Program-made: the position numbers and the translations under genes
Notes under the pieces: generated by a model
Seen by the model: only the letters and a program-made list of their open reading frames with translations
What the model was told of the DNA's origin: nothing
Database searches by the model: none
Shown: positions 4,414 through 41,638 of the stretch, one piece after another
Position numbering within the stretch: position 1 is the stretch's first letter
Layout: each line of letters opens with the position of its first letter
Source: Gammaproteobacteria bacterium
GTDB taxonomy: Bacteria > Pseudomonadota > Gammaproteobacteria > Eutrophobiales > Eutrophobiaceae
Reading direction: 5' to 3'
Length of the DNA stretch: 64,000 nt
NCBI GenBank assembly: GCA_965116495.1
Contig: OZ220696.1
Span: 2,208,001 to 2,272,000 of the forward strand

Positions 4414-5628
4414 TTAGCCGACGCCGGCCATCGCTGAAGCCTTAATCTGCGTGACCGAAAGTCTATTAAGCGCATTGTCTATCAAGTTTACCGCATCATC
4501 AATATCTGCGTCTGTCGTGTCAAAGCCGAGACTGAATCGGATGGATGCTTCGGCATCTTCAGGGGATAGACCTATGGCTTTGAGAACGTGGGAAGGTTCC
4601 GGAATCCCGGATGTGCAGGCCGACCCGGTAGAAGCGGCAAGATGGGGCTGAAGCACCTGCAGAATATCCTGGGCGTAGAAACCTTCGAAGCAAATATTGG
4701 CATTGCCGGGGTGGCGGGATTCTTCGGTGGGGCCGTTCAATCGGATGGACCAGGGCAAGTCCGCCAATTTTTCGAGGAGGCGATCCCGTCTTTGACGCAG
4801 GAAGGTACGCTTTTGCCTCGACTCAGTACTACTCAGAAGTTCGGCAGCCGCACCCATGCCTACGCACAAAGCCGTAGGAACGGTGCCTGCGCGCAAACCG
4901 TTCTGTTGTCCACCCCCGTAGATAAGCGGTTCCAGGCGATCCTGCAACTCCCGGCGGATGTAGAGCGTGCCGATACCTTTCGGTCCGTACATCTTGTGGG
5001 CGGACAGACTCAACATGTCTACATGCTCGGCAACTCCCCGTATATCCATGGAAACGGGAGCCTGGGCGGCATCGCAATGAAATATGGCGCCTGCGTTTCT
5101 CACGAGTTCAGAAATTTCTTGGATGTCCTGTATTGTGCCAATTTCATTATTCACCGCCATGATGGAAACGGCGAGTACGTCTTCATCCAAGGCATCTTCC
5201 AGTGACGCCAACAGGACGCGGCCTTCCCTGTCGACGGTTAGATGCTCTACAGGAAGACCATGCTGGTCGGAAATTACCCGTCCGGCTGCAAGCACGCACT
5301 TGTGCTCAATCTCGCTGAGGATAAAACGTCTCCTTCTGCTTAATGAGCGAACGCGACGGGCAAGCCCAAGCAGGGCCATGTTGTTCGCTTCAGTGGCGCC
5401 TGACGTGAAAATGATCTCATCAGGGTCGGCGCCAATCAAAGCTGCGACTTGCGCTGCCGCCTGCTCCACGGCAAGAGAACTTTTCCAACCGAGTGTGTGG
5501 TCTGCTGAATGGGGGTTGCCGAAGGATTCCCTGAAATACGGCAGCATCCGGTCCAGGATCTGTTGATCGACGGGTGTGGTCGCCTGGTGATCCAGATAGA
5601 TGGTTTCTGAAATCCTCATTAATTTCAA
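4414..5628 (-). CDS. sspA: Cysteine desulfurase (IscS/DndA/SspA-like), sulfur donor for DNA phosphorothioation
   Basis: 'YLDHQATTP', 'FTSGATE', PLP lysine 'SAHKMYGPKG', catalytic 'STGSACTS'; divergent from DUF4007-ATPase-PAPS reductase. Confidence 0.85.
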   Translation of the reverse strand: MKLMRISETIYLDHQATTPVDQQILDRMLPYFRESFGNPHSADHTLGWKSSLAVEQAAAQVAALIGADPDEIIFTSGATEANNMALLGLARRVRSLSRRRRFILSEIEHKCVLAAGRVISDQHGLPVEHLTVDREGRVLLASLEDALDEDVLAVSIMAVNNEIGTIQDIQEISELVRNAGAIFHCDAAQAPVSMDIRGVAEHVDMLSLSAHKMYGPKGIGTLYIRRELQDRLEPLIYGGGQQNGLRAGTVPTALCVGMGAAAELLSSTESRQKRTFLRQRRDRLLEKLADLPWSIRLNGPTEESRHPGNANICFEGFYAQDILQVLQPHLAASTGSACTSGIPEPSHVLKAIGLSPEDAEASIRFSLGFDTTDADIDDAVNLIDNALNRLSVTQIKASAMAGVG

Positions 5629-5774
5629 TCAGATATAAGAAAAAACCCCAAGCCGATAAAGTTTCTGACTTTGTTGCTGAAATATGCAAAAAAACGATAA
5701 CGTACGGATTGACTATAGCATACTCAATACATTAAAATCGAACTGGAGTTGTACTCCAGGAAGGAAATAGACTT

Positions 5775-6740
5775 ATGCCATATAAGCCACTGCTTGAAGC
5801 AAATTATCGCCCGTCATTCTCGGGACATGAGACCTTTCCCCTACGCTACGGATGGCTGAAAAAAGCATTCGACCGCGTTGCCGAAACTGAGCATTACTAT
5901 CATAATAAATCCCTGTGTTGGGCCGAAGACGCCATCGCACGCTTCGGTGTCGGAAAAAATATGGTTGCCTCCATACGCCATTGGGCAACAAGTTGTGATA
6001 TTATTGAAGAACCTGATAAGGAAGATTCAGTCAAAACGACAACACTTGGACAAAAGCTTTTTGGAAACAATGGGATAAAAGGGATTGACCCATATATGGA
6101 ACACCCCGCCACACTCTGGCTCATCCATTGGAAGTTGGCCGCCCAACCGAAGAAAACAACCTGGTTCTGGGCTTTCGGCCATTATCCGGCAGTTACCTTT
6201 TCCCGTAACCAATTCGTGCAAAAAATCGGGCGTCTTGCAAAGGATCGCGTGTGGCGTGTCTCAAATACGACTATCAAAAATGACGTTGCCTGTTTTATCC
6301 GGACTTATGCAGCACGGCAAGCAACGGGAAGAACCGGCCATGATGATGCACTGGAATCACCGCTGACGGAATTGGGATTGATCAAAACCGTAGGAGAAAA
6401 AGACGGATTTCGTTTTATGCGCGGCCCCAAAGCAACCCTCACTGACGGCGTGTTTGTATATGCCCTGCTGGATTTCTGGTCGCGCTACTCTGATGCCAAC
6501 ACATTGTCATTTGAAGCTCTTACTTACGAACCAGGCGGACCGGGGCGCGTGTTTGCCCTGGAAGAGAATGATGTAGTCGATCGCTTGACGGCGCTCGAAG
6601 ATATAACGAGTGGGAAGTTGCGATGGTCTGAGGCCGCCGGTTTGAAACAGGTGGTCCGCAATATTGATATCGACGAAGAAACAAAACTCCAATACCTGTT
6701 TTCCGATTATGACAGTTCAACCGTAGAGGGAACAAATTAG
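5775..6740 (+). CDS. sspB: DUF4007 family protein (SspB-like)
   Basis: 'FSGHETFPLRYGWLKK', 'FGVGKNMVASIRHW', 'DPYME...LWLIHW', 'ESPLTELGLI' match DUF4007. Confidence 0.88.
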   Translation: MPYKPLLEANYRPSFSGHETFPLRYGWLKKAFDRVAETEHYYHNKSLCWAEDAIARFGVGKNMVASIRHWATSCDIIEEPDKEDSVKTTTLGQKLFGNNGIKGIDPYMEHPATLWLIHWKLAAQPKKTTWFWAFGHYPAVTFSRNQFVQKIGRLAKDRVWRVSNTTIKNDVACFIRTYAARQATGRTGHDDALESPLTELGLIKTVGEKDGFRFMRGPKATLTDGVFVYALLDFWSRYSDANTLSFEALTYEPGGPGRVFALEENDVVDRLTALEDITSGKLRWSEAAGLKQVVRNIDIDEETKLQYLFSDYDSSTVEGTN

Positions 6741-6742
6741 TA

Positions 6743-9700
6743 ATGCTGAAAGAACACGTCCATATTGCCAGGCGTTTTTTGAGATCAATACGCATCGATA
6801 CTGATCTTACTGAAAGCTCGGCATTGGAAGGTTTTATTTGCCCGCAGTCATCCAGAGATGTCCTGATGACCATGGCACGCCACGTAACCGAAACCGGACA
6901 AGGCGCATTCACCTGGACCGGTCCGTACGGAAGTGGGAAGTCCAGCTTGGTCGTTGCACTGAGCGCATTGTTAAGCGGCAGTGCTTCTCTACGCGCGCAA
7001 GCGGGAAAGATATTCGGATGGGAATTGACGGATACCATCGCGGAAGCGATGCCCTCGGGAACTGAAGGATGGCGCATCGTGCCTGTGGTCGGTGTTCGGG
7101 ATGATCCTGTCAGGGTAATTGGAGAAGCCGCTCGACGGGAACTAGTCGTAAAACGCCGTCCTCGCGGCGGGTGGAGAGAAAGCAACCTGATAAAAGCGCT
7201 GACAGATGCCGCTGAATACAAGCCTGACAGGTACGGCGGGGTTGTCTTGTTCATTGACGAGATGGGCAAATTCCTGGAAAGCGCTGTCAGGGACGGTTCC
7301 GATATCTACGTCTTCCAGCAACTTGCGGAAGCGGCGTCACGGAGCAAGGGGCGCTTGCTGGTAATCGGTATACTGCACCAGTCATTCGAGGAGTATACCC
7401 ACCGGCTTTCCCATGAAATAAGGGACGAATGGGCCAAGGTACAAGGACGGTTCATAGACTTGGTGATCAATGCGACGGGCGAAGAGCAGATAGAACTGAT
7501 TTCCCGCGCAATCGAAAGTGATCGTCAACCCAAGATTATGGATGACCTTAGCTCCAATGTCGCTCAGGTTACGCTGCAAAATAACAAGATCGACATTGAT
7601 CGACTCGCCTCGAGGCTGACAGCATGCTGGCCCCTGCACCCGGTTGTCACCTGCCTGCTCGGCCCCATCTCGCGCCGTCGGTTCGGACAAAACCAGCGCA
7701 GCCTGTTCGGCTTTTTGAACTCGGCAGAGTTATTCGGGTTTCAGGATTTCCTGAAACACGCCGATGATGAGAAGTTATATACACCGGACATGCTCTGGGA
7801 TTACCTGCGCGCCAACCTGGAGCCATCCATATTGGCATCACCGGACGGCCATCGCTGGGCGTTGGCCGCCGAGGCGCTTGAACGGTGTGAATCTCAGGAC
7901 GGCAACGAACTACACATCAGTCTTTTGAAAACCATTGCCGTCATAGACCTGTTCAAGGAACGTTCAGGGATTATCGCAAACTTCAACGTACTGCAAACCT
8001 GTTTCCATGAAATACCCGACCAGGAACTCCCGGGCGCCTTGTTGAAGCTGAATAACTGGTCATTCACCATTTACAAAAAGTACCTTGAGACACATGCTAT
8101 TTTTGCCGGTAGCGATTTCGATATCGATCAAGCCACGCGGTCGGCGCTTGAACAGATACATGAGATAGATTTCAAGGAACTTAAATCACTAGCAGGCATT
8201 CAGCCCATTCTAGCCAAGCGGCACTATCACGAGACCGGGACGTTGCGATGGTTTGAGGTAAACATCATACCGCTCAGTGCTCTCCGTGATACTGTCGAGC
8301 ATTACCAGCCTGAGAAGGGGGCCATAGGCCAATTTATTCTTGCCGTACCCACCGCGGGTGAGAGCGAAGAAGAAGCAACAAAACTGTGTCGAGAAGCAGC
8401 CGACCATGATGCCCCCTGGGACAGTCTGGTCGGCATGTCGAAGGCATCATGGACGATTATTCCATTAGCCCGTGAACTGCTTGCATTGGAATGGGTAAGT
8501 GACGAACATCCTGAATTGGCGGGTGATTCTGTTGCTAGGCGGGAAGTTTCCGCACGCCTAGCAGCCCTGCAATCACTGCTTGAAACAGAATTGCACAAAT
8601 CCTTTGATAATGCCAAATGGTTTGGCAAATCACACACCGCCCAGCCCCTGAGGCAGGCTGAACTGAACAACATCGCATCAGAACTTGCAGACAGTCGTTT
8701 CAACCAATGTCCACACTTGCATAATGAACTGTTGAACCGGCAGAAACCGTCCGGCAGCGCCGTGGCAGCCCAAAATATATTGCTGCGACGCATGGTTCTG
8801 AACAAAGGGGAGGACAGGCTGGGCATCCGGAAATTCCCGGCAGAAGCCGGCCTGTTTGTTTCAATACTGGATGCGTCCGGGCTTTATCGGAAACGCAATG
8901 ATCAATGGCGATTCTTGCCTCCCGATAAACACTCGGACTCCTGTTGTCTTATCCCGATGTGGGAAGCTGCGAGCACGCTGGTACATGAAAAAACTATCAC
9001 CGTCACGGATTTGTATGATCTCTGGCGCAAACCACCCTTCGGTGTGAAAGACGGACTACTACCGGTTCTTTCCGTCGCATTCATTCTGTCACAACAGGAG
9101 AAACTGGCAGTCTACCGGGAAGGATTATTCAAAGCCCGATTTGACGACGTTGACGTTGACTACCTGGCAAAGGATCCGAACACCATCCAGGTCCGGTGGA
9201 TGGATTTATCCGACATAGCCCGCAGGTTATTGTCGGAAATGGCGGCAATAGTCCGGGACCTGGACGAAACCAACCGGCTCAGTCAACTTGAACCCATCGA
9301 CGTCGCCCGCGGATTGGTAGCGATATATGACCAATTACCACAATGGACTAAACGGACCATGCGGCTGTCAGCCAACGCGATCCACATCAGGGACATGTTC
9401 AAGCGCGCGCGCGATCCGAACAAGTTCCTGTTTGATGATATACCGGAAACACTGGGAGGAGATATTTCCCAAATCGACGAGGAAGCCCTGCACCGATTAG
9501 TAGAAAAAGTACGCGATGGTCTGACTGAACTGGCAAACGCCTATCCCTCAATGTTGCATAGGTTGCGAGAAACCCTGCTCTCCGAATTGGGTGTGCATAA
9601 TATCTCCCCGCAATCACTGAATGAACTGCGTGACCGCGCTGAAAACATCCGTCAGGTCGAAGGCGATTTCAAACTCGAAGCTTTCATCGGCAGGATTGCA

Positions 9701-10126
9701 CAATTCAATGATACCGGTGCAAGCATCGAAGATATAGCCAGCCTGGCGGCGAACAAACCACCCCGTCACTGGATTGATCCCGATCGCGACCGGACGACCG
9801 TCGAGATTGCTGAACTTTCGCAAAAATTTCTGCGGGCTGAATTATATGCTCGGGTTAAAGACCGACCTGACAAACGCCATGCCATGGCAGTAGTCGTCGG
9901 GATGGATGGCCGACCGACACCAGTTCATGAAGAATTTGCTATTGCTGACATGGATCGAAATCAGGTAGATCTATTAATCAAGCAAGTAAAAGACGCATTG
10001 GAGCACAGCGGAGAAAGACGCCGCAATATCATCCTGGCCGCCCTGGCAGAATTAAGCGCCTTGTATCTCAAACAGGCTGCATCCGATCATACGGATACAG
10101 AACAAAAGGAACAGACGGCGTCATGA
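6743..10126 (+). CDS. sspC: Large P-loop ATPase (SspC-like)
   Basis: Walker A 'GPYGSGKS', Walker B 'LFIDEMGKFLE', 'EWAKVQGRF', 'FGQNQRSLFGFL', 'PPFGVKDG'; lies between DUF4007 and PAPS reductase. Confidence 0.85.
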   Translation: MLKEHVHIARRFLRSIRIDTDLTESSALEGFICPQSSRDVLMTMARHVTETGQGAFTWTGPYGSGKSSLVVALSALLSGSASLRAQAGKIFGWELTDTIAEAMPSGTEGWRIVPVVGVRDDPVRVIGEAARRELVVKRRPRGGWRESNLIKALTDAAEYKPDRYGGVVLFIDEMGKFLESAVRDGSDIYVFQQLAEAASRSKGRLLVIGILHQSFEEYTHRLSHEIRDEWAKVQGRFIDLVINATGEEQIELISRAIESDRQPKIMDDLSSNVAQVTLQNNKIDIDRLASRLTACWPLHPVVTCLLGPISRRRFGQNQRSLFGFLNSAELFGFQDFLKHADDEKLYTPDMLWDYLRANLEPSILASPDGHRWALAAEALERCESQDGNELHISLLKTIAVIDLFKERSGIIANFNVLQTCFHEIPDQELPGALLKLNNWSFTIYKKYLETHAIFAGSDFDIDQATRSALEQIHEIDFKELKSLAGIQPILAKRHYHETGTLRWFEVNIIPLSALRDTVEHYQPEKGAIGQFILAVPTAGESEEEATKLCREAADHDAPWDSLVGMSKASWTIIPLARELLALEWVSDEHPELAGDSVARREVSARLAALQSLLETELHKSFDNAKWFGKSHTAQPLRQAELNNIASELADSRFNQCPHLHNELLNRQKPSGSAVAAQNILLRRMVLNKGEDRLGIRKFPAEAGLFVSILDASGLYRKRNDQWRFLPPDKHSDSCCLIPMWEAASTLVHEKTITVTDLYDLWRKPPFGVKDGLLPVLSVAFILSQQEKLAVYREGLFKARFDDVDVDYLAKDPNTIQVRWMDLSDIARRLLSEMAAIVRDLDETNRLSQLEPIDVARGLVAIYDQLPQWTKRTMRLSANAIHIRDMFKRARDPNKFLFDDIPETLGGDISQIDEEALHRLVEKVRDGLTELANAYPSMLHRLRETLLSELGVHNISPQSLNELRDRAENIRQVEGDFKLEAFIGRIAQFNDTGASIEDIASLAANKPPRHWIDPDRDRTTVEIAELSQKFLRAELYARVKDRPDKRHAMAVVVGMDGRPTPVHEEFAIADMDRNQVDLLIKQVKDALEHSGERRRNIILAALAELSALYLKQAASDHTDTEQKEQTAS

Positions 10127-10965
10127 ATACTGAAGCCAGTAAGCGGCATGTGCTGGGTCTGTCCGGCGGGCGAGACAGCGCGGCCTTGGCCGTATATATG
10201 CGGCAACACCACCCGGAATTGAATATCGAATACTTTTTTACAGACACTGGCAAAGAACTACCGGAAGTCTACGAATATCTTGGTCGTCTTGAAGGTTTCC
10301 TGGGCCAGCCGATATTACGGCTGAATCCAGACCGCGATTTCGACTTCTGGCTCAAGCAGTACAACGATTTCCTACCTTCGCCCCAAAGCCGCTGGTGTAC
10401 CAGGCAACTGAAACTTCGGCCATTCGAACAATGGCTGCGTCCCAAGCTCGAAAATGGGGAAACCATCTACAGCTATGTCGCAATCCGTTCTGACGAAGAG
10501 TACCGCGAGGGCTATGCTTCCAAAAACGACAGGCTCATAGTGCGACTGCCTTTTAAGGAAGTTGGCGTCGACAAGGCCGGAGTGCTCGAGATACTTGACG
10601 GCGCCGGCCTGGGCCTGCCGACATACTACGAATGGCGAACCCGTAGTGGTTGTACCTTCTGTTTCTTCCAGCAGAAAATCGAATGGGTCCGGTTGAAAGA
10701 ACATCATCCTGACGCATTCGAGGAAGCCAAGGCTTATGAAAAGAACTCAGTGGGCCACGGATCTCCTTTCACCTGGAGTCAAGGCGAAGCCCTTGATGAA
10801 TTGGAAAAGCCGGAACGGATCAGTCAAATCAGGCAGGAGCATGAACAGCGTCTGTTACGTATGCGTTGTAAGGTCCAGCCTAATCCGTTACGGCCTGATA
10901 ATGATCCGCTGGATATTGATGATTTATACGGTCGGGCGAAGGTTTGTTTGGCTTGTCATAAATAG
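10123..10965 (+). CDS. sspD: PAPS reductase family protein (SspD-like ATP pyrophosphatase)
   Basis: PP-loop 'SGGRDS', 'DTGKE', 'RWCT', 'SGCTFC', C-terminal 'CLACHK'; ATGA overlap with sspC. Confidence 0.88.
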   Translation: MNTEASKRHVLGLSGGRDSAALAVYMRQHHPELNIEYFFTDTGKELPEVYEYLGRLEGFLGQPILRLNPDRDFDFWLKQYNDFLPSPQSRWCTRQLKLRPFEQWLRPKLENGETIYSYVAIRSDEEYREGYASKNDRLIVRLPFKEVGVDKAGVLEILDGAGLGLPTYYEWRTRSGCTFCFFQQKIEWVRLKEHHPDAFEEAKAYEKNSVGHGSPFTWSQGEALDELEKPERISQIRQEHEQRLLRMRCKVQPNPLRPDNDPLDIDDLYGRAKVCLACHK

Positions 10966-10982
10966 AAACTGGAGAAAGATAC

Positions 10983-11507
10983 TTGAATTTCGATTTACTG
11001 GTAGACTTTGTAAATGAAGCAACCGAAGAAATAGCAAAGTATCAGGTTGAGTTCACCTTGTCTTCCCCGAATATGAGAGTAAACCAATATGTAGTTCCTT
11101 TCCTTAAGTGGGATTCAATAAGTTACGGTGATGCTGAGATATGTAAAGTCCCAAATGACAAACGAGGAATATATGCTTTTGCCATCTGTCAACTGAGTGA
11201 CGTGCTACCGCCTCATGGATACATTCTATATGTTGGAATTGCAGGCCGCGACTCTAAGCGCTCATTGAGAGAACGCTACAAAGACTATCTTAATGAAAAA
11301 AAAGTCATCAAATCATCTCCTAGAATTGCGCGAATGATCGGCACTTGGCATGATGTGTTGCGATTTTTTTTTGCTCCTGTAAGTGATGACGTTTCAGCAG
11401 ATGATCTGAAAAAACTAGAAAAAGAATTGAATTCAGTTCTAATACCACCGTTTTCTGAGAACGACTTAGAGGCAGACATTAAACGCAAACGGAGGGCGTT
11501 TCGATGA
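10983..11507 (+). CDS. GIY-YIG-like nuclease
   Basis: 'RGIYAF...ILYVGIA...SLRERYKDY...LEKEL...PPFS' follows the GIY-YIG layout (GIY, YVG, Arg, Glu). Confidence 0.65.
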   Translation: MNFDLLVDFVNEATEEIAKYQVEFTLSSPNMRVNQYVVPFLKWDSISYGDAEICKVPNDKRGIYAFAICQLSDVLPPHGYILYVGIAGRDSKRSLRERYKDYLNEKKVIKSSPRIARMIGTWHDVLRFFFAPVSDDVSADDLKKLEKELNSVLIPPFSENDLEADIKRKRRAFR

Positions 11508-12763
11508 AAAAATTGAGAAAGATTGTTCTACCTGCAATTCGCGGAATTATGGGTGACTGGGTATATTATTCATGCCTTATGGACTTGAAAGAGTTAAGCT
11601 CAAGAGTTCACTACGCAGAGGAGATTCATAAAAATCAGGCACTCTCAGATATGATTCAAAGAAGGCTAAAGGCCGGACGAAGTGCACAAATTGCTGAATA
11701 TCTCAAGATTCAGCCGGAACGTTTCTTTAATTCTCTCGTCGTTGCAACTTATGGCGGACAGCCTAACTGGCACGCTCTATCTAATGTTAGTGGCAAAACA
11801 GTTAACAATGAATTACGCGATATACGAGATGCAACTATCGCATCAGTCGGATTCTTAACTCTAAGAGGGGATGAAAAACTTTTTGCATTAGACGGACAAC
11901 ACCGGCTTGCTGGTATAAAAAAAGCTATTAGAGATGAAATGGAGCAAGATCCGTTTGATGAAGTATCAGTAATTTTTGTTGCCCACAAAGATACCTCCAA
12001 AGGCTTAGAGAGAACTAGAAGATTATTCACGACCCTCAATAAGACTGCGCGGCCGGTGTCTAAAGGCGATATTATTGCTTTAGATGAAGATGATGTAATG
12101 GCTCTTTGTGCTAGGCGACTTATTGAAGAAACTGATTTCTTTTTCGGGAATCGCATAGCATTCGTAGCAAATAATAACTTACCTGGGGCAAATATCACTA
12201 GCCTCACAACAATCGGAAATTTATATGACATTTTGACTATTTTGTTCACCAATGGGCAATCAGACTTGAAAAAAAGGAAAAGTGATCTACAAAGAGTACG
12301 ACCAAACGATGATATTCTTGAGCAGTACTATAAATATTCTGAGGGGTTTGTATCGCTACTTGGTGAAAATTTCGAAGAGTTATATGAATTTTTCGCTGCC
12401 AAAGATACTACCGCTATTGTAAAAAAATACCGGGGAAATTTTGGAGGCCGCGCAACTTTCCGTCCAATTGGTCTAGATGTATTTACAAGAGTAATAGCTC
12501 AACTCTCAAAAGAGATGACACTCGCCGAAGCTATTAAACTTGTTGCAAAATTGCCTCGAAATCTTTCTGATGCGCCTTACGAAGGATTGATGTGGGATTC
12601 AAACCAAAAGATAATTCTCAACGGGCATAAAGTAACTTTGCGCGAGGTGCTTTTATTCATGCTGGGAAGGAACACCAAAAAATATTCAGAACCGATACTG
12701 TTAGATAGATATAGGCGAGAAACTGATAACAACAAAATAAACCTACCCGAAAAACTAATTTAG
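11504..12763 (+). CDS. DGQHR-domain (DndB-like, ParB/Srx fold) protein
   Basis: 'IQR', 'RFFNSLVVA', 'LDGQHRLAGI', 'RRLFTTLNKTARPV'; ATGA overlap with the upstream gene. Confidence 0.85.
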   Translation: MKKLRKIVLPAIRGIMGDWVYYSCLMDLKELSSRVHYAEEIHKNQALSDMIQRRLKAGRSAQIAEYLKIQPERFFNSLVVATYGGQPNWHALSNVSGKTVNNELRDIRDATIASVGFLTLRGDEKLFALDGQHRLAGIKKAIRDEMEQDPFDEVSVIFVAHKDTSKGLERTRRLFTTLNKTARPVSKGDIIALDEDDVMALCARRLIEETDFFFGNRIAFVANNNLPGANITSLTTIGNLYDILTILFTNGQSDLKKRKSDLQRVRPNDDILEQYYKYSEGFVSLLGENFEELYEFFAAKDTTAIVKKYRGNFGGRATFRPIGLDVFTRVIAQLSKEMTLAEAIKLVAKLPRNLSDAPYEGLMWDSNQKIILNGHKVTLREVLLFMLGRNTKKYSEPILLDRYRRETDNNKINLPEKLI

Positions 12764-12770
12764 CAATAGC

Positions 12771-12943
12771 TGCGTAATCCGGCTGATCGTGAACACTCAT
12801 TCTGGTTGAACGTGAACACCGATTCCGGTTCATCGTGAACACCTGTTCCGGTTGAACGTGAACACTTTTCCGGTCATTTCCGGAATCACTGTTCACGTTC
12901 CCGGAATCACCGTTCACAATCAACCGGAATCATTCTCAACGCA
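12771..12943. mobile_element. IS21-family terminal region / MITE-like remnant without istAB
   Basis: Begins TGCG and ends CGCA; four ~23-bp units (core CGTGAACAC..TTCCGG) followed by inverted units, the multi-repeat architecture of IS21 ends. Confidence 0.7.
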
Positions 12944-13015
12944 TTGAACTTGTAACCCTTGGTAGGCTCTCTCCTTTTTGGAGGAACTTGTCCTTGAAAA
13001 TCTTTTCGCTAGTAA

Positions 13016-13450
13016 TTATGTAACTAGTTTTTCCAATTCATCAAACAAAGACCACAGCGGTCGCTCATCTGGATCAGACATTATTTGAATCAAGTAAGGC
13101 ATCCCAGCATTTGCGACACCTAGGCAATAATCAAAAATTTCCCTGTAATCAGACAAAGACTCTATATCCTCAGTTGTACCTAAGTATGCGAGTAGCATAT
13201 GGTTAATTCTGTATGGGTCAGTAGAGAAAATTGTTGCAGGAGTTGCGTTGTACGTGTCAGCGTCTGGCTCTGGGTCTAAGCCTTTCGAAAGACCTATTAA
13301 AAAAGCCATATACCAGAAATCTACTTGTCTTTTAAATGGGGCATACTCTGGTGTACTCTTATTTCCTCCTGTGCGGCTATAACTAACAACTGACTCTCTA
13401 TATTTGTTAGGTATTTCCACGTTGTATGATGCGAAAGGATTAGCAATCAT
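13016..13450 (-). CDS. Small protein at the end of the helicase/ABC-ATPase operon (PbeD/DndE-like position)
   Basis: 144 aa, directly downstream of the SMC-type ATPase; assignment is by position only. Confidence 0.55.
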   Translation of the reverse strand: MIANPFASYNVEIPNKYRESVVSYSRTGGNKSTPEYAPFKRQVDFWYMAFLIGLSKGLDPEPDADTYNATPATIFSTDPYRINHMLLAYLGTTEDIESLSDYREIFDYCLGVANAGMPYLIQIMSDPDERPLWSLFDELEKLVT

Positions 13451-13462
13451 ATCTAAACTCCT

Positions 13463-15604
13463 TTAAGAAACAGATTCGTTATTTACTCTTTCGCATGTAT
13501 GGCAACGTGATCTATGGTCACAACTGCATCTAATAATGCGAGCATCATTTACTTCCGCCTGGTGTACTAACATTCTCGGGTAGTGTGCAGGATTGGTTAT
13601 CGTATAAACCTTACCAGCCTTTGTATCAATAATGCTTTCAACACCCGCTATCTCGTCGTGCGTCAGGAAGAGAACAACTTGACTACCTTCCATAATGGTT
13701 CGTCGAAGAACAGATCTCTTTACGAAACCAGACATCATCCCTAGAGGGGTATCAATAACATTAGGTGCTTCGACTTGACTTACCTTTGTTAATGCCAAAA
13801 TAAATGCAAGAGTGATGGCCCTACGTGATGCTCCATTCAAATCTTGATCGGGATTGAGTTGGTGACCATTTGGCCCGTACACCAAGATATCGTAGTCTTC
13901 GGTCAACTCAGCTTTTGTAATCAATGTGAGGTCGTTGACCTCGGGCTCAGCACCGATCATCTCTAAAAATATGCGATTCATTTCATCACTTACCTTCTTT
14001 AGCTCTTCTTTCACCAAATGTTCCTCTATTTGGTGGAATATATTTTGAACATTACGTGATAGATTGAGCTTGTCCACAGACGAATCAGTTTTAGTAAGTT
14101 TCTTTTCGATTTTCTTCCTATTATCTTCGGCGTCCCGTTTGCGTTGTTTAGATTCTTCAATCGAACTCTCACGTTGGCCAAGTCGTATTCTCGCCGAATC
14201 CAATTTACGAGATAACGAATATTCCAGTTCTCGGTATTCGTTTAGTGAAGTATCATCTATAGCGTCGCGATCAGCGATGAGCTTCTTCAGTCTTTTTTGG
14301 TCAGCAGAAAGGTCCGACATGAACTCATAAAAATCCTTATTCCGCGAAGCATAATATTGAACCCACCCATCTGAACGCGACTTATCAAATTGTTCGCTTC
14401 TCACTGCGTAGAATAGGCTTGTCGCTGCCTCCTGTAACGCGTCGGAGGCTCGACTGTCCTCTATAGATTCTTGAATTGAGTCCCTTGCTTTCATCCCAAT
14501 TTTTGTTTCTGTAGATAAATCTGCACCACAAAAACACTTGTCACGGCTAAGAAGCTCTTCAAGTATAGGGATATTTACTTTTGGGAGTCGCTTCTTCTTA
14601 CTCATGCCATTTAGAAGTGCTAGACCTTTTTTTGCTGACTTAGATATAAGTACGGCTGATAAATGATCGGAATTAAGCAGGGTAGATATATCTTCTAAGG
14701 CTTTCTTTGAGCCTTGAGTACCACGTTCGATATCTTTTCTACACTTGTTTATGTCCGCTACCAATTTGGATTTGTCACCAAGCTTTAAAGCCTCTTCAAT
14801 CTTTTTTCGTGTGGAATTCAGTGTGCTACTGCCCTCACTGATCTCACTCTCGAGCGTTTTTCTTTCCTTTTCCCACTCAGTAATATCTTCCTCAAATCCT
14901 ACGATGCGATCATTAAATTTTTCAAGCTCTTTTGCATAATCAGTGTCATCAATCCTTGAGCCAAATTTGCTAGCGGCTTTATCGAGGTGGTTAATCGTCT
15001 TATCTAAAATATCGAGTCCTAATAATGCCTCAATGGCATCGCTCACACGCTTTCTTTTTACACCCCGAGTTGCTGCTGCTTCGATGAACGACATGGCGCT
15101 ATCACCGTCAGTAAAATACACATCCTTCAAGGCACCGGGAATACTGCTCTCGATAATTTCTTCCACATCGGAAGCCAATATACGTTCAGACCCCTCGGGC
15201 TTAATTTCAAAGAGTATTACTCCCTCTGCCTCACGGCGTATGTCCCCCGAATCACTAGGATACTCAATACACGTCCTAAGTAATCTGTATTGTTTTTTTT
15301 GGAGCTCATGAGCACTGCGCCCGAGAGTTACTACTTGGTCTGTCTCGAACTCTATCTCTACTGACACCTCAACTTTCTGGATAGTCTCCTTCATATCTGA
15401 AGGGAAAAGGGGGTATTGTTTACCAATACCAGGCAATGCTCTGTTTCCAAAAAGACCCCATAGCAAAGCAGTTTTGCATGTGGTTTTACCAGATTCGTTT
15501 GCAGCTCGTATTACAGTAAGATTTTTCTTTTCGTCACATGAAAAATCCAGTGTGAGGTCTTTCAATAAACGAAAATTATTAATACTTGCTCTTATCAACT
15601 TCAT
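13463..15604 (-). CDS. SMC/Rad50-like coiled-coil ABC ATPase (DndD/PbeC-related, C-terminal CxC motif)
   Basis: 'INNFR', Walker A 'AANESGKTT', 'FTDGD', hook 'CFCG', signature 'LNGASRR', Walker B 'VIDTPLG', H-loop 'LTHDE', C-terminal 'CSCDHRSRCHTC'. Confidence 0.85.
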   Translation of the reverse strand: MKLIRASINNFRLLKDLTLDFSCDEKKNLTVIRAANESGKTTCKTALLWGLFGNRALPGIGKQYPLFPSDMKETIQKVEVSVEIEFETDQVVTLGRSAHELQKKQYRLLRTCIEYPSDSGDIRREAEGVILFEIKPEGSERILASDVEEIIESSIPGALKDVYFTDGDSAMSFIEAAATRGVKRKRVSDAIEALLGLDILDKTINHLDKAASKFGSRIDDTDYAKELEKFNDRIVGFEEDITEWEKERKTLESEISEGSSTLNSTRKKIEEALKLGDKSKLVADINKCRKDIERGTQGSKKALEDISTLLNSDHLSAVLISKSAKKGLALLNGMSKKKRLPKVNIPILEELLSRDKCFCGADLSTETKIGMKARDSIQESIEDSRASDALQEAATSLFYAVRSEQFDKSRSDGWVQYYASRNKDFYEFMSDLSADQKRLKKLIADRDAIDDTSLNEYRELEYSLSRKLDSARIRLGQRESSIEESKQRKRDAEDNRKKIEKKLTKTDSSVDKLNLSRNVQNIFHQIEEHLVKEELKKVSDEMNRIFLEMIGAEPEVNDLTLITKAELTEDYDILVYGPNGHQLNPDQDLNGASRRAITLAFILALTKVSQVEAPNVIDTPLGMMSGFVKRSVLRRTIMEGSQVVLFLTHDEIAGVESIIDTKAGKVYTITNPAHYPRMLVHQAEVNDARIIRCSCDHRSRCHTCERVNNESVS

Positions 15605-15825
15605 TATCGATCTCCTAATTCCTTTATCCGATCTGCTACGAACGAAACTTCATCCATGATGCTCTCGATCATTCGTGATCTAGGGACAGATTCGGAACTA
15701 GCCTCCAACATGTATATTTTGTTGCAAAGCAATTTAATTTTCTCCTTCTGCCCATCAGTCCAGGAATCTGTCGAGTCCACTTCCCGAGAAATCATCTCTG
15801 ATATCTTTTTGTATCCAATACTCAT
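15604..15825 (-). CDS. Small helical protein between helicase and ABC ATPase (PbeB-like position)
   Basis: 73 aa; overlaps the stop/start of both neighbours (translational coupling). Confidence 0.6.
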   Translation of the reverse strand: MSIGYKKISEMISREVDSTDSWTDGQKEKIKLLCNKIYMLEASSESVPRSRMIESIMDEVSFVADRIKELGDR

Positions 15826-17939
15826 TTATCTCTCTCCAGCATAGATAACATTTCATTCATTAATTCAATGGAACCATCACTCTCAAGCCCGTTTGAACTG
15901 AGTTTAGAGAAGAAACTCATGCGCTCAAATTCGTTACGCAGAAGACTTTTAAGATCCCTATCCATCCTCCATGAATCCAACTTGGGTATTACAACAAAGT
16001 CATGTACAACAGCCTTTTCTTTTTGAGTACTGGGTGACAACCGTAGTACTCTGCCCAATCTCTGAACCCATTGACGCTTTACTGTATTACTTGCAAGAAA
16101 ATATGCAGTTTCTGTCTGAGGTATATTAAATCCTTCATCTAAGACACGCTTTGAGGTAAGAACTTGGTACTCTCCAGCTTCAAATGACTGAACTATTCGT
16201 TTTAGAGTCTTGGGACTACTTGTTTCGTCTGCGGTCACCTGATGAAAGTTTACTGCACGTTTAGATAAAAGTTGATTTAGTGCTTCTAACTGCTCAGGAT
16301 TTTTGTCTGTGCAAAAGAATAGTGTTCTTTGAATCTCGTATTTTTTCTTAGGTAAAATTTCAACTAGCCTAGAAATCTTTCCTGAAGCTGCCTCAACGAT
16401 TCTTCTTCTCTGTAAACAGAGCAGTTTCCAACGCTCTTTCTCGGAATTCCCATCATCCAACTCAGCTGCGTAGCTCAATTTACGAATCTTATCTGTTAAG
16501 TCAGACCATTGCTCTTGCTCTTCATAATCAAGTTGAACTTTGTGAACGTGGTAATCATATGGGACAAGGCAGCTTCCAATCGCTTTCTCTAGAGGAAAGT
16601 CATAAACCACGTCTCCAAAGTAATTTATCAAAAACTCAGTTCCACATTCATCAAACTGTCGAACATGAGTTGCTGATAGACCCATTAAATATTTAAAGCA
16701 ATCCCTAGCCTCAGCCTGAAAACCAATGCTTCCTAGGTTGTGAACTTCGTCCCCAATTAACATTATCGGCATAATCATACTGGCTTCTTCCAGAATTACA
16801 GTCAAATCAGACTTGAGTGCCTCATGGGTTAGCACAACAACCTCATTATGAGAGACCTCATGCCTTAGTTTTCTGATTTGTCCCTTAAGCACTCTCTTGA
16901 CTTCTCTTTTGGAAACTCCATAGGTATTTTGTGGAATAACAGAAAATGACCTCACATCATCGGACCACTGATTAAGCAAAGCTTTTGTAGGTACAGCAAT
17001 TACAATGAGTAATTTTTCTTCTCTTGAGCTAACTTTGCTCGCTGCAACTAAAGCGGTAAGTGTTTTACCTCCACCTGTAGCTATCGAGAGAATACCCTTT
17101 CCTTTTTTCATCCACGCATTTATCGCTTCGCCCTGATGTGCATACTCTCCAGTTTGATAATTTAACCATTTCGGGATAATCAACTTGGACTTTATATCTC
17201 CTACTTCACTAGAGCCTAATTCTTCAAGAATCTTGGCATTCAAATAAGATGGCCAGTCGCATACACCGCGTTTCTTCTCATTAATCTCAGAAAGGTATTC
17301 AATTGTTTTTTTATTGACTTCAATAGTCTCTACACCCTCGTATCTACCACTCCAGAGCAACTCGAAAGTCTCTCGAATTATATCGACACCTTGCTCACCT
17401 GCAGTGTTATCAAATTCTTTACTTATACCTATCTGTTCAGTATTTAGTGAAAACCCTTTGCCAGTTGCATTAACTGAACCGTGAATCGCTATTCCGCCGA
17501 ACTCAGTTTCAAAAATCCAACATTTTGCATGAAAAAGCCCTTGTTTCTGCAAACCTAGTTTTAGACTAAGTCGACCCGTTGCAACTAAATAAGCCAATGC
17601 GCTAACAGCTCTTGTTCGGAGATTGTCTTCTGTGAGCTCAAATCCAGGGAAAAGCAAAGAGATTATATTTTCGTTATTGACAATAGCAATTTTTAGCGCT
17701 TTTAAATCTTGCTCTTCTAAGTTTGGACCTACAATAAACCTTATTGAGCTGCCTTTAGCTGCTAAAAAGTGGCTTAATGAGCGGGCTAATTCGCTTAAAG
17801 CTCCACTAGTAAAATATCCACTCATACAAGATATTTTTGAAGCAATTTCAACGATAGGTAGAAATACTTCACGATCGATATCATGCTTGTTAACAAAGTA
17901 AACCGGCTTTAGTTCGGCGATTGTGTTTGAGGTAGTCAA
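15822..17939 (-). CDS. PLD(HKD)-nuclease + SF2 DExH helicase fusion (PbeA-like / PT-associated restriction enzyme)
   Basis: 'GYFTS', 'FHAKCWIFE...HGSVNAT' (HKD-like), Walker A 'ATGGGKT', 'DEVH', 'GLSAT', 'LDEGFNIP', 'QRLGRVLR'. Confidence 0.85.
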   Translation of the reverse strand: MTTSNTIAELKPVYFVNKHDIDREVFLPIVEIASKISCMSGYFTSGALSELARSLSHFLAAKGSSIRFIVGPNLEEQDLKALKIAIVNNENIISLLFPGFELTEDNLRTRAVSALAYLVATGRLSLKLGLQKQGLFHAKCWIFETEFGGIAIHGSVNATGKGFSLNTEQIGISKEFDNTAGEQGVDIIRETFELLWSGRYEGVETIEVNKKTIEYLSEINEKKRGVCDWPSYLNAKILEELGSSEVGDIKSKLIIPKWLNYQTGEYAHQGEAINAWMKKGKGILSIATGGGKTLTALVAASKVSSREEKLLIVIAVPTKALLNQWSDDVRSFSVIPQNTYGVSKREVKRVLKGQIRKLRHEVSHNEVVVLTHEALKSDLTVILEEASMIMPIMLIGDEVHNLGSIGFQAEARDCFKYLMGLSATHVRQFDECGTEFLINYFGDVVYDFPLEKAIGSCLVPYDYHVHKVQLDYEEQEQWSDLTDKIRKLSYAAELDDGNSEKERWKLLCLQRRRIVEAASGKISRLVEILPKKKYEIQRTLFFCTDKNPEQLEALNQLLSKRAVNFHQVTADETSSPKTLKRIVQSFEAGEYQVLTSKRVLDEGFNIPQTETAYFLASNTVKRQWVQRLGRVLRLSPSTQKEKAVVHDFVVIPKLDSWRMDRDLKSLLRNEFERMSFFSKLSSNGLESDGSIELMNEMLSMLERDK

Positions 17940-18329: not shown

Positions 18330-18795
18330 TCAGATCTTTAAATTCAAAACCCCCTCAAAAACCCCAAACGCCACCTCCCCATACAAACAGAAAACCACTC
18401 TCACCAGCCCGGTTTCTCCCTGCAGGTAATCTATCGTAGCGGATAGCATGATCTCCGCGCAGCGCTCGATCGGAAAACCGAACACGCCGGTGCTGATAGC
18501 TGGGAACCCGACGCTTTTCAGACCGTTTTTGTCTGCGACTCTCAGGCTGTTCAGCTTTGCTTTCCTGAGTTTTTCCTCCTCGTCCCCTTCTCCCTTGCGC
18601 GGGCCGACGGCATGGATGATGCGCCGCGCCTTGAGGTTGCCGCCGCCGGTGACCACCTTTGGCGCGAATGGCGCCGGCCACGCCCGCGCCTAATATGAGC
18701 GAGGCATTGGCCGCATTGACGATAACGTCGGTGTGGAGTTCGGTGATGTCGCCCTCGACGAGTTCCAGGGTTTTATCGTTGATTTGAATGTGCAA
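18330..18795 (-). pseudogene. Macrodomain (ADP-ribose hydrolase, YmdB-like) gene broken by an internal frameshifting deletion
   Basis: N-part '[23 protein letters not shown]' and C-part '[30 protein letters not shown]' are in different frames, joined at about 18655; the usual intervening segment is missing. Confidence 0.8.
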
Positions 18796-18902
18796 TTTTG
18801 AATGCCATTAAAGTCAAGCTTGAGTTTAAAGGTGCTTTCGATCCGGAATATACACACGATTATACGGTTAGAAATTTAGCTTGAATACTTCTCAGGAAAA
18901 AC

Positions 18903-19025
18903 ACAGTTGTAACAAAGACGGTAATCTTGCAGTCCATACGTTGCCTGAAAAACGCGGGACTGCGCTGCTTGATTTATTGTCAACATTTGATGATGAATTT
19001 ATAGAAATTCTTGAAGAAAATTACC
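18903..19025 (+). repeat. 123-bp diverged direct repeat, copy 1 (copy 2 at 20707-20829); possibly an antitoxin gene remnant
   Basis: ACAGTT(G/A)TAACAAAGACG...GATTTATTGTCAACATTTGATGA...TTACC occurs twice and flanks the Fic gene. Confidence 0.85.
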
Positions 19026-19110
19026 AAAACCGGCTTTTACTGCTGCCAACCGTCGAATCCTTACTCTAATTGGCGATATAACACTGAATGCGACTTGAAG
19101 ATCGTTAAGA

Positions 19111-19177
19111 TCAATCCCCTCTGATCCACTCCAGCACCCCGCCCACCCACGGTCCGTCCAGGTCGCCGCATGCCAGG
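19111..19177 (-). pseudogene. Duplicated 3' end of the alpha/beta hydrolase gene (22186-22252)
   Basis: 67-nt ungapped match with 9 mismatches by eye; encodes LACGDLDGPWVGGVLEWIRGD* versus LACGDPDGLWAGRVMEWIRGH*. Confidence 0.85.
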
Positions 19178-19205
19178 CAAGTCGGCGGCCAGCCGCCACC
19201 GGTGA

Positions 19206-20603
19206 TCAGCGCGCCGACTGCATCTGTTTCCACTCGATAAATTCCGGTACCCGAAGCCTGTATCGCGCCAGTGCCGCCTCATGCAGGCGCTGCAATTCAT
19301 CGTCAACCAGACCAATGAACCTGTCGATATCTTCATCAGGGACACGGCCTTCTGTCAGGCATGCAATGGATTCCGCAGTGGCTGCAAGCCTGTCCTTGAC
19401 GATGCGGCCTATGACTGATTCAATTATCGGCCTGTATTTATGCCTGAACGGATCGGGCCTGCCGGCAAGGTCCTTTGAGAGATTGTACCGTTGGCATGAC
19501 CGTTCATAGGCCCAGACGAACACGTCGATCAGCAGGTCGGGCTGGTTCAGTTCGTACACGCCCAGCATCCCTTCAATATAGGTTTTTTTGGGGACGCCAA
19601 CGAACGATAACGGACACAGCCTGTTTTTGATCAGCGGGATGTTGGCGCCCAGCCGCGCCACCCGCTTATTGACATCGGTAAAAGGCTGCAGGTACGGGAT
19701 ATGAACCATCAGGAAAAACGCCTGCTCAAACGGGTCGTCGATGGCCTTTGCCTTGTCCAGAATCAGCCTGAAATACTGCTCTACCTGTTGGGGGACCGCC
19801 ATTGGCATGTAAACAGACCCGCCTATCTCAACGATCTTGTTCCGCAAGCGCCCGCTGTCATCCGGGCCGCTCATTAAACTGTCCGACAATACGGCGTGCA
19901 GGCTCAGGAAGGTGTACATGTTGAAATCCACGTATTCCACCTCCTGAACCAACATCTCTATGGCGCGTTTGTGGTTCAGGATCATCGTCGCCTCAAAAGG
20001 GTCTTTTCCTTCGGCGAGCCTGCCGGCTTCAATCAGGTTCTGTGTGTCCATGAGCGAATAGGTGTTTCCTTCAAGCCTGCTTGATGCCCAAGGCAGGTCT
20101 ATCAGCAACCTGTCAATTAAAACGAGCGGATAGGTCCCGTCATCTGCCTGTCCGGGTTCCTTGAGTGTCCCGATGTTGCGCAGGTGCGCCCTGATGTCGT
20201 CCGGCAAGTAGCTCGTCACATTTGGCCCGTAACTCTCCAGGTAGTCTCTATGGTAGGAGACGGGATCACGGCCGTGAACAGGCCTTTGCACATACTCCCT
20301 GATCGTCTTGCTCTCATCCGACACGGGGATCTGGATTTCAACGTCGGGTTCCGGTATTGCTGAGGAGGCTGGTGATCTGCCAGGTGGCTTCCTGTAATGC
20401 ACCGCACGCGCTTTCCCGACCCGGATGATTTTCCCTTCATCAACGAGGTCTGCCAGCCTGCGCATGAACGTTCGGTGACTTGGAGGGTCATCCTGCATCC
20501 TTTCCTTCAGGGCTTTAAATATGTCAGCGCTACCGAGGCCCTTATCGTTATCGGACGCGAGTACAATCTCTGATATCACTTCTGTTAAATCATTAATTTT
20601 CAT
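19206..20603 (-). CDS. Fic family protein with N-terminal wHTH
   Basis: 'SSRLEGNT', 'MILNHKRA', variant Fic motif 'YLQPFTDVNKRVARL'. Confidence 0.88.
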   Translation of the reverse strand: MKINDLTEVISEIVLASDNDKGLGSADIFKALKERMQDDPPSHRTFMRRLADLVDEGKIIRVGKARAVHYRKPPGRSPASSAIPEPDVEIQIPVSDESKTIREYVQRPVHGRDPVSYHRDYLESYGPNVTSYLPDDIRAHLRNIGTLKEPGQADDGTYPLVLIDRLLIDLPWASSRLEGNTYSLMDTQNLIEAGRLAEGKDPFEATMILNHKRAIEMLVQEVEYVDFNMYTFLSLHAVLSDSLMSGPDDSGRLRNKIVEIGGSVYMPMAVPQQVEQYFRLILDKAKAIDDPFEQAFFLMVHIPYLQPFTDVNKRVARLGANIPLIKNRLCPLSFVGVPKKTYIEGMLGVYELNQPDLLIDVFVWAYERSCQRYNLSKDLAGRPDPFRHKYRPIIESVIGRIVKDRLAATAESIACLTEGRVPDEDIDRFIGLVDDELQRLHEAALARYRLRVPEFIEWKQMQSAR

Positions 20604-20644
20604 ATATCAAACCTGCCTGGCAATGCGTATCAACTACACATAGA

Positions 20645-20686
20645 TGGCACGATACTGGCATAATACTGGCACAATAATGGCACGAT
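20645..20686. promoter_or_regulatory. Four 11-bp tandem repeats (TGGCA(C/T)(G/A)ATA-) upstream of fic; putative operator
   Basis: TGGCACGATAC TGGCATAATAC TGGCACAATAA TGGCACGAT; one helical turn period. Confidence 0.55.
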
Positions 20687-20706
20687 TTCAAGTCGACCAG
20701 CAAAAG

Positions 20707-20829
20707 ACAGTTATAACAAAGACGCTAATCTTGTAGTCCATACATTGCCTGAAAATCGCGGGACTGCGCTGCTTGATTTATTGTCAACATTTGATGACGA
20801 ATTTATAGAAATTCTTGAGGAAATTTACC
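20707..20829 (+). repeat. 123-bp diverged direct repeat, copy 2
   Basis: Matches 18903-19025. Confidence 0.85.
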
Positions 20830-20849
20830 TGAACCAGCCGATTTGATCG

Positions 20850-20890
20850 AATTTAGCAAGTTTATGATATTTTCATAAACTTGCTAAATT
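20850..20890. promoter_or_regulatory. Perfect 18-bp inverted repeat upstream of the AAA ATPase; putative operator
   Basis: AATTTAGCAAGTTTATGA-tattt-TCATAAACTTGCTAAATT, followed by TATAAT and the ATG at 20906. Confidence 0.65.
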
Positions 20891-20905
20891 AGCTATAATT
20901 CTGTC

Positions 20906-41290: not shown

Positions 41291-41638
41291 ATGACTCCCC
41301 TAGAAGGAGCGACAAAATCATTCTCGTCAAATGGCAACAATACGAAGATATCATGTAAGCAACCACTGTAGTATCGAGGCGAATACAGGTGTTATGCTTG
41401 TCAGATCCCGGAAACCTAGCTTGTGCCCCACGGTATCGCACAGGTTCAGATACGTTTTCTCTTCCATGGAGCGAACGTTGTCCGCCATCCTCATCTGCAA
41501 GTGGATCTTCATATCGTCGTCGAGATTGCGGATCGCTTGCCATGGGTGGGAGTTCCGTTCACCCGCAAACCCAATTTACGCGGCGATTGCATCGGTTTCA
41601 TGCAGCACCTATTACCTGTTTCTGTTACCCGCGACAGC

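Follow-up and report, generated by a model that had tools for sequence, protein, structure and literature searches.

The stretch of DNA analysed here (the window) is 64,000 nucleotides (nt) of contig OZ220696.1 from a gammaproteobacterium of the family Eutrophobiaceae. Its positions 4414 to 17939 carry the genes of an SspABCD phosphorothioate (PT) writer and, facing them, the four genes of a PbeABCD-type operon. Ten intact open reading frames (ORFs), not eight, are present between these positions (Table 1). The eight ORFs named in the original prediction, which was made from the letters of the window, all lie where it had placed them and have no internal stops, but two genes between sspD and an insertion sequence (IS) end had been overlooked. 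The locus is genuine and conserved: it recombines two modules that were already known, and it also has a marker of its clade and a second, unnamed module. The genome is a single contig and is 99.5% complete. Assembly error is unlikely, as contigs of run X2 are identical to the window along most of its length here; run X2 may share its source with the window.

Table 1. Features at window positions 4414 to 17939 and the matches or traits by which they were assigned
Feature	Position	Strand	Description
sspA	4414..5628	-	Cysteine desulfurase (sulfur donor), 404 aa; PADLOC SspA 2e-133; SAHK 209 and GSAC 335 motifs
sspB	5775..6740	+	DUF4007, 321 aa; PF13182 1e-87; PADLOC SspB 1.1e-109
sspC	6743..10126	+	ATPase, 1127 aa; PADLOC SspC 1349 bits vs BrxC 362 bits
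sspD	10123..10965	+	PAPS-reductase-family sulfur transferase, 280 aa; PADLOC SspD 5.8e-135, DndC only 1e-5
GIY-YIG-type nuclease gene	10983..11507	+	174 aa; starts 17 nt past sspD
DGQHR (DndB-family) gene	11504..12763	+	419 aa; overlaps nuclease gene by 4 nt; Pfam DndB 7.3e-27
IS21-type terminal remnant	12771..about 12990		Without transposase; 23-bp direct and inverted repeat arrays at 12771-12943
pbeD	13016..13450	-	DndE-like protein, 144 aa; AlphaFold pLDDT 91.9
pbeC	13463..15604	-	CxC-clade coiled-coil ABC ATPase, 713 aa; PADLOC PbeC 4.4e-52, DndD only 1.6e-33
pbeB	15604..15825	-	Small protein, 73 aa; assigned by position and conservation
pbeA	15822..17939	-	HKD (PLD) nuclease fused to SF2 helicase, 705 aa; PADLOC PbeA 5.7e-177; PLDc_2, ResIII, Helicase_C

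The first four genes make up an SspABCD set, with its four parts adjacent, sspBCD forming an operon, and the catalytic motifs intact. The sspC product keeps Walker A (GPYGSGKS) and Walker B (FIDE), and that of sspD keeps the SGGRDS loop and the cysteine motifs. The predicted identities of the four genes were upheld by PADLOC, but their orientation had to be corrected, as sspA is divergent from sspBCD. By analogy with characterised systems, SspABCD is predicted to write PT on one DNA strand here.

The convergent operon running from 17939 down to 13016 is PbeABCD, i.e., a CxC ABC-ATPase system. Its genes are mostly coupled, as had been proposed, with overlaps of 4 nt (pbeA-pbeB) and 1 nt (pbeB-pbeC) and a gap of 12 nt (pbeC-pbeD). 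The pbeA product is a fusion of an HKD nuclease and an SF2 helicase in which H137, K139, GSxN, and the helicase motifs are invariant among 42 sequences; the window's version of HxKx4D is HAKCWIFE, where E replaces D. Walker A, the hook cysteines C357 and C359, the Walker B region, and the tail cysteines of PbeC are invariant among 49 sequences. The cysteine cluster that the original prediction had seen at the C-terminus of an SMC-type ATPase (CxC..CxxC) does exist, but the CxC hook that defines the CxC clade (PMC10853773) lies in the middle of the protein, and the C-terminal cluster, C-x-C-x-H-x3-C-x2-C, is an extra one. The hook pattern was found in 79 of the 80 related loci described below, and so was the tail, whose sole exception stops at a contig edge. 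None of 12 other Pbe/Dnd-type ATPases examined has the tail.

No Pfam, PADLOC, or NCBIfam model matched the 73-aa and 144-aa ORFs. The pbeB product is a small protein at the expected position: 74 of 77 loci have an ORF of about 70-100 aa separating pbeA from pbeC (two of these are unrelated to the pbeB family), and for likeness to archaeal PbeB the Atlas row Sp-DndD gave just 0.77. Compared with related locus L004, pbeB has a rate of nonsynonymous substitution (dN) of 0.012 and of synonymous substitution (dS) of 0.374, i.e., dN/dS of about 0.03. The AlphaFold model of PbeD aligned with DndE structures 7x4e, 5wtu, and 4lrv at VIA Z of 9.1, 9.0, and 8.8, respectively (root-mean-square deviation 3.0-3.4; 96-111 residues aligned). 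Foldseek gave no significant E-value for this model, only 4 of its 63 chains reached VIA Z 2, and the sole matches were DndE structures. Judged by the model, PbeD has the DndE fold and a DndE cognate is encoded beside the ATPase. The Pbe genes are intact and under purifying selection; against two close relatives, dN/dS was 0.04-0.13 for sspB, sspC, sspD, pbeA, pbeC, and pbeD.

The operon shares its four genes, their order and sizes, the CxC hook, and an adjoining PT writer with DndCDEA-PbeABCD of Haloterrigena jeotgali A29 (PMC6459918). The A29 set consists of a PLD-helicase, a protein of about 70 aa, a coiled-coil ATPase, and a DndE-like protein of about 150 aa, and was re-annotated as a CxC ABC-ATPase/DndE/HKD-SF2 system (PMC10853773). 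The window locus differs from it in having SspABCD as the writer and a PbeC from a separate group that carries the extra cysteine cluster. The original prediction gave PbeABCD as described in archaea with DndCDEA, but a wide distribution of PbeABCD among bacteria had already been published (PMC6459918).

When 185,579 species genomes were scanned with a PbeC alignment, 189 relatives came up, and the best 80 were analysed with up to 10 kb of flank. At least one of sspB, sspC, and sspD was present in 70 of the 80 loci and at least two in 66; judging by record titles, the 80 span at least 10 phyla. The hidden Markov models (HMMs) used for linkage were built from the 80 loci themselves; tblastn with the window's own proteins gave counts near to theirs (sspD 67, sspC 66, sspB 60). 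In single-sequence control queries, none of the 80 loci matched DndC, DndE, or SspF/G/H, and one matched type I HsdR. Evenly drawn genomes served as background, and 33 of 1,599 had SspD (about 2%; centre genomes excluded, one unscored). The recurrent linkage on which the original prediction hinged is thus present, and its caveat that the adjacency could be defence-island stacking can be rejected on the same counts: the adjacency of Ssp and Pbe is more than stacking. The two halves are convergent, as in the window, in 35 linked loci; ssp lies upstream on the same strand in 24 and downstream on the same strand in eight, and three loci are divergent. In 14 loci, sspD and pbeA are within about 150 bp on one strand. 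Six of the ten loci without ssp end 2.6 kb or less from a contig edge, and in three of the ten genomes a full-length SspD is encoded at another site. Carriage of this Pbe on plasmids was rejected, with one match among 72,556 plasmids at E≤1e-30.

Within each half the genes have evolved together more closely than across the halves. Pairwise distances at 55 loci, uncorrected for phylogeny, correlated at 0.87 for PbeA-PbeC and 0.78 for SspC-SspD, and at 0.33-0.37 across the halves. Kin of the window's PbeC at 66-67% identity adjoin SspC proteins at 26%, and kin of its SspC at 63-70% adjoin PbeC proteins at 37-39%. Such close PbeC kin beside distant SspC indicate that the halves were re-paired yet remained linked. 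Re-pairing together with varying gene order suggests coupling via the DNA mark, which the free exchange among very divergent writers favours as well. In genome G401, the clade adjoins ssp at L066, another Pbe adjoins dndBCDE at L125 (G401:C1:342000-360000), and the Pbe ATPases of these two loci fall in different groups. The window's PbeC is 22% identical to a Dnd-linked PbeC.

Neither a distant SspE nor a Dnd writer was found in the rest of the genome, and no dndCDE or sspE locus turned up that would explain either half separately. DndC was found nowhere in the genome, and the only DndD-like match, under the cut-off, is pbeC itself. PF08665 (PglZ) matched nowhere in the genome; BrxL was not searched genome-wide. 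Full-length SspE (DUF262-DUF1524) is not encoded in the genome, where only N-terminal matches of 29-42 bits were obtained. Of three DUF262 genes elsewhere, two match Orf5/HEC-06 inside type I restriction-modification (RM) loci and resemble SspE only along about 100 N-terminal residues; the third matches other candidate families. A tblastn search of the genome with one natural DndC, DndD, DndE, SspF, SspG, and SspH each returned only an FtsK-domain match (SspH), and HMM searches for SspF/G/H agreed, the control of one search matching nowhere. At least seven type I HsdR-like loci are also present in the genome.

The AT-rich effector operon and the IS21 end between the halves, both pointed out in the original prediction, are real. 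The G+C content is 48-55% in the ssp genes, 39-42% in the other six genes, and 54.7% in the genome. The two halves differ by about 10 points here, with a median difference of 0.02 across 67 loci. At 12772-12990, the remnant matches at 78% one end of an L004 element that carries a transposase, and a second copy elsewhere in the genome is 86% identical over 111 nt; the remnant is assigned to the IS21 family by its general likeness to such ends. Related locus L030, with 84-85% nt identity in both blocks, has 58 bp from sspD to pbeD, while other genes and a transposase lie between them in L004. Contigs from runs of two other studies join position 10967 to 13014 with 24 letters between. Because of the 58-bp gap and the direct-join contigs, the IS end was rejected as a border of independent islands, and since sspD and pbeD are directly joined in close relatives, AT-richness and IS end are signs of a slot whose cargo can be swapped. 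SspE was a recurrent neighbour in 15 of the 80 loci, as were a short DUF262 protein in 13 (frequently accompanied by a kinase), a putative methyltransferase in 12, an HATPase/kinase pair in 10, and DGQHR in 7; 18 of the 70 linked loci have no recurrent cargo type. Directly past pbeD, ten of the 80 loci (e.g., L035:12712-16979) have an HATPase/histidine-kinase gene of 790 aa and another gene, of 633 aa, that belongs to no known family.

In the window, this slot holds the two overlooked genes. Residues G62, Y64, Y83, G85, R98, and E146 of the 174-aa protein are invariant among 43 sequences and are presumably the GIY-YIG active site. With the GxY...YxG core and the conserved Arg and Glu it is a putative nuclease. 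Its top Atlas match (0.98) is a 'putative GIY-YIG', Foldseek gave weak matches to T4 EndoII, Eco29kI, and Hpy188I, none at E≤0.001, and 417 homologues were found at E≤0.001. The DGQHR motif of the second protein is invariant among 39 sequences. This protein exceeds the cut-off of TIGR03187 and is 24% identical to the DndB of a dnd operon. The equivalog model does not make it the DndB transcriptional regulator (57 bits vs the cut-off of 328), and it has no similarity to SspE (profile-profile probability 0.4%); phmmer gave no relative of solved structure. Of 53 metagenome loci of the GIY-YIG gene, 45 have enough flank, and in 43 of these the next gene is DGQHR; sspD is present in 30 of the 53 (within 150 bp in 29), and DndC in three. 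Further neighbours are the same Pbe clade, other Pbe, SspFGH, and a helicase-MORC-PLD trio. As it stands beside sspD and with several different effectors, the pair tracks PT writers, not Pbe, and it was rejected as a core part of the Ssp-Pbe pairing, with DGQHR in only seven and GIY-YIG in five of the 80 loci. The pair is a second Ssp-linked module in the swappable slot and is likely optional cargo, a second PT-linked sensor-nuclease arm; it may also have a DndB-like regulatory role. Its plan, a nucleotide-binding sensor and a nuclease directly past sspD, is similar to that of SspE by analogy only.

Other known systems share parts with the locus. SspABCD-SspE (PMC9646914) has the same writer genes, but the window's genome has no full-length SspE. 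SspABCD-SspFGH (PMC8092258) has the same writer and a multi-gene ATPase effector nearby, but here SspF and SspG are missing and SspH is represented just by the FtsK-domain match. In PMC10853773, the ssp system is given as one without a DndE cognate. BREX type 4 (PMC12914056, PMC12839542) has homologous DUF4007, ATPase, PAPS-reductase, and desulfurase parts, but the window's genome lacks PglZ, and sspC scores far higher as SspC than as BrxC. One of the 70 linked loci (L016:491-12606) is BREX-type-4-like: its Pbe genes, of this clade, come right after a set made up of an SspC-like gene, a gene of 760 aa, and brxL.

The pairing of Ssp with Pbe was not found in titles and abstracts of the literature searched; Krishnan 2020, Xiong 2020, and the supplement of PMC10853773 may list it. 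It is not described in the portions available of PMC6459918 (supplements included), PMC10853773, PMC9646914, PMC12707154, PMC7464106, and bioRxiv 2024.09.26.614923, and the word 'pbe' is absent from those of PMC8092258, PMC12914056, PMC12839542, and PMC8569181.

With a probability of roughly 60%, the SspABCD writer and this distinct PbeABCD clade would act as one PT-dependent anti-phage system coupled through the DNA mark. The PT-dependent mechanism is proposed because of the archaeal data: archaeal Pbe needs its writer, is non-toxic without it, and spares PT-marked virus, and about half of the PT sites in the archaeal system are hemi-modified (PMC6459918). By analogy with characterised homologues, SspA would pass sulfur from cysteine to SspD, and SspB and SspC would direct single-strand PT to a short motif, which is CCA in studied systems. 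A clamp of PbeC (zinc-hook ABC ATPase) and PbeD (DndE-like DNA binder) may then scan DNA; PT in host DNA would arm the Pbe complex and spare the marked DNA. Phage DNA without the mark would be attacked by PbeA, with translocation by its helicase and cutting by its HKD domain, or the complex would bring replication to a halt.

Several observations weigh against this reading. The 80 loci (the best of 189) are not independent of one another, being related and in many cases drawn from similar hosts, and counts made on them overstate independence. SspE accompanies 14 of the 70 linked loci (the other 56 are without it in the DNA fetched), and Pbe therefore need not be the reader. For SspE, the original claim that Pbe stands instead of SspE or SspFGH accordingly fails as written, the more so as the window holds the overlooked pair as a second candidate effector; for SspFGH, none of the 80 loci has it. 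Two Chloroflexota chromosomes (L064 and L075) carry the Pbe clade with only weak PAPS-reductase matches and no full-length SspD, and SspD was not found in five further Ssp-less genomes, all fragmented assemblies. The PbeA ORF of L064 is only 483 aa long. A quick PbeC tree set the 30 rows of the clade apart from Dnd-linked and other PbeC at an SH-aLRT of 85, with long branches flagged. CxC systems are argued to be often independent of a PT writer (PMC10853773), and a sulfur-binding site was identified in no Pbe protein. The reverse count, made on 34 sspD loci of 33 evenly drawn genomes (20 kb or to the contig end), also counts against it: two loci had the clade (L108, and L120, which is the same record as L042), five loci in four genomes had other Pbe clades, two had SspE, three had SspFGH-like sets, and 27 had no Pbe. 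The clade thus nearly always has an Ssp-type writer, most Ssp writers are without it, and Pbe in general is not Ssp-linked.

Three other explanations were considered. PbeC and PbeD could help the writer, guiding or loading SspD as a DndD/DndE-like scanning clamp or docking on Ssp in one shared modification-restriction machine. The DndE fold of the PbeD model, the position of PbeC as a sister of DndD, the tight placement of sspD and pbeA on one strand in 14 loci, and the cysteine cluster conserved throughout this clade and absent from the 12 other ATPases are all in line with such a role. It is nevertheless unlikely, because the clade pairs with SspC subfamilies mutually only 20-30% identical, which a fixed protein interface would tolerate poorly, and because most sspBCD loci of the even sample do without Pbe and SspBCD with IscS alone makes PT (PMC8092258). 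Pbe could instead be a back-up that arrests or kills the cell when a phage inhibits Ssp or dilutes the marks, direct reading of PT being left to a cargo gene, here GIY-YIG/DGQHR and elsewhere SspE. It would fit the SspE genes of 14 linked loci and the frequency of other sensor-like cargo. It would also fit the GIY-YIG/DGQHR pair, which comes directly past sspD in 29 of the 53 metagenome loci and has effectors of several kinds as neighbours, and section 17 of PMC10853773 allows suicide action for HKD-helicase systems. The 18 linked loci without recurrent cargo, the close relatives of the window locus without the pair, and the absence of toxicity of archaeal Pbe without PT (PMC6459918) make such a guard improbable.

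That two defence systems merely share one island, with Pbe ignoring PT, is suggested by the G+C difference of about 10 points, the IS end between the halves, their loose co-evolution, and the existence of Ssp-less copies. Moreover, among 369 other genomes of the window's class, at least six PbeA matches were found, none in SspD genomes and one beside dndBCDE; this count scored three candidates per genome, and three of the six matches are partial or distant. Such independence has little probability when linkage is seen in 70 of 80 loci, the background is about 2%, and type I RM is found in one of 80, when the link outlasts reshuffled gene order and partners, and when the G+C difference is usually as small as the median above.

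Beyond the preferred PT-dependent coupling of SspABCD and PbeABCD, a wider proposal is offered tentatively. The zinc-tailed PbeABCD clade could be a dedicated single-strand-PT reader that gives Ssp-type writers, BREX-4-like ones among them, a third arm of restriction. Some of the sspBCD published as 'orphan' and of the pbeAC published as 'solitary' could be explained in this way. Between writer and Pbe there could be a hot-swap slot for further PT-gated effectors, and the GIY-YIG/DGQHR pair could be an unnamed two-protein analogue of SspE. In one survey, 2,211 of 2,678 sspBCD clusters had no known effector (PMC8092258), and 165 of 553 pbeAC had no modification partner (PMC6459918); the Ssp-Pbe pairing would link part of both lists. 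On the mechanism of PbeABCD, two papers differ: no DNA cleavage was visible in the experimental one (PMC6459918), and cleavage is predicted in the comparative one (PMC10853773). The locus offers a bacterial, clonable system of 14 kb for settling it, and could show whether one effector design reads double- and single-strand PT alike.

More than one recruitment is suggested by distant Pbe clades that adjoin sspBCD as well (L105:2393-7062, L103:16971-19461, L113:11737-14399, and L114:3297-8750), some of them with their genes differently ordered and with no cysteine tail. In the even sample, sspD was most often accompanied, in 8-10 of the 34 loci, by a trio of an SF2 helicase, a MORC-type HATPase, and a PLD-like protein, located at L104:10454-14809 and in seven to nine of L094, L095, L097, L100, L101, L106, L110, L115, and L116; in PADLOC it gave only partial PbeA and MzaB matches. 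Adjoining pbeA in the window, positions 18355-22102 hold a fragment of a macro-domain gene, a gene for a Fic-domain protein of 465 aa, and an AAA ATPase. Copies of a 137-bp direct repeat (18898-19034 and 20702-20838; 91%) stand on both sides of the Fic-domain gene, and an inverted repeat with a 27-bp perfect core lies at 20841-20899. A second small defence-like block at 37533-44197 encodes an HATPase (767 aa), a metallophosphoesterase (485 aa), an Eco57I-type methylase, and a XamI endonuclease. Between 28019 and 54894, six Rieske oxygenase genes were annotated, five of them with a VanA-like C-terminal domain, and transporters, an adenosine deaminase, and a glycine-cleavage T-like gene lie among them.

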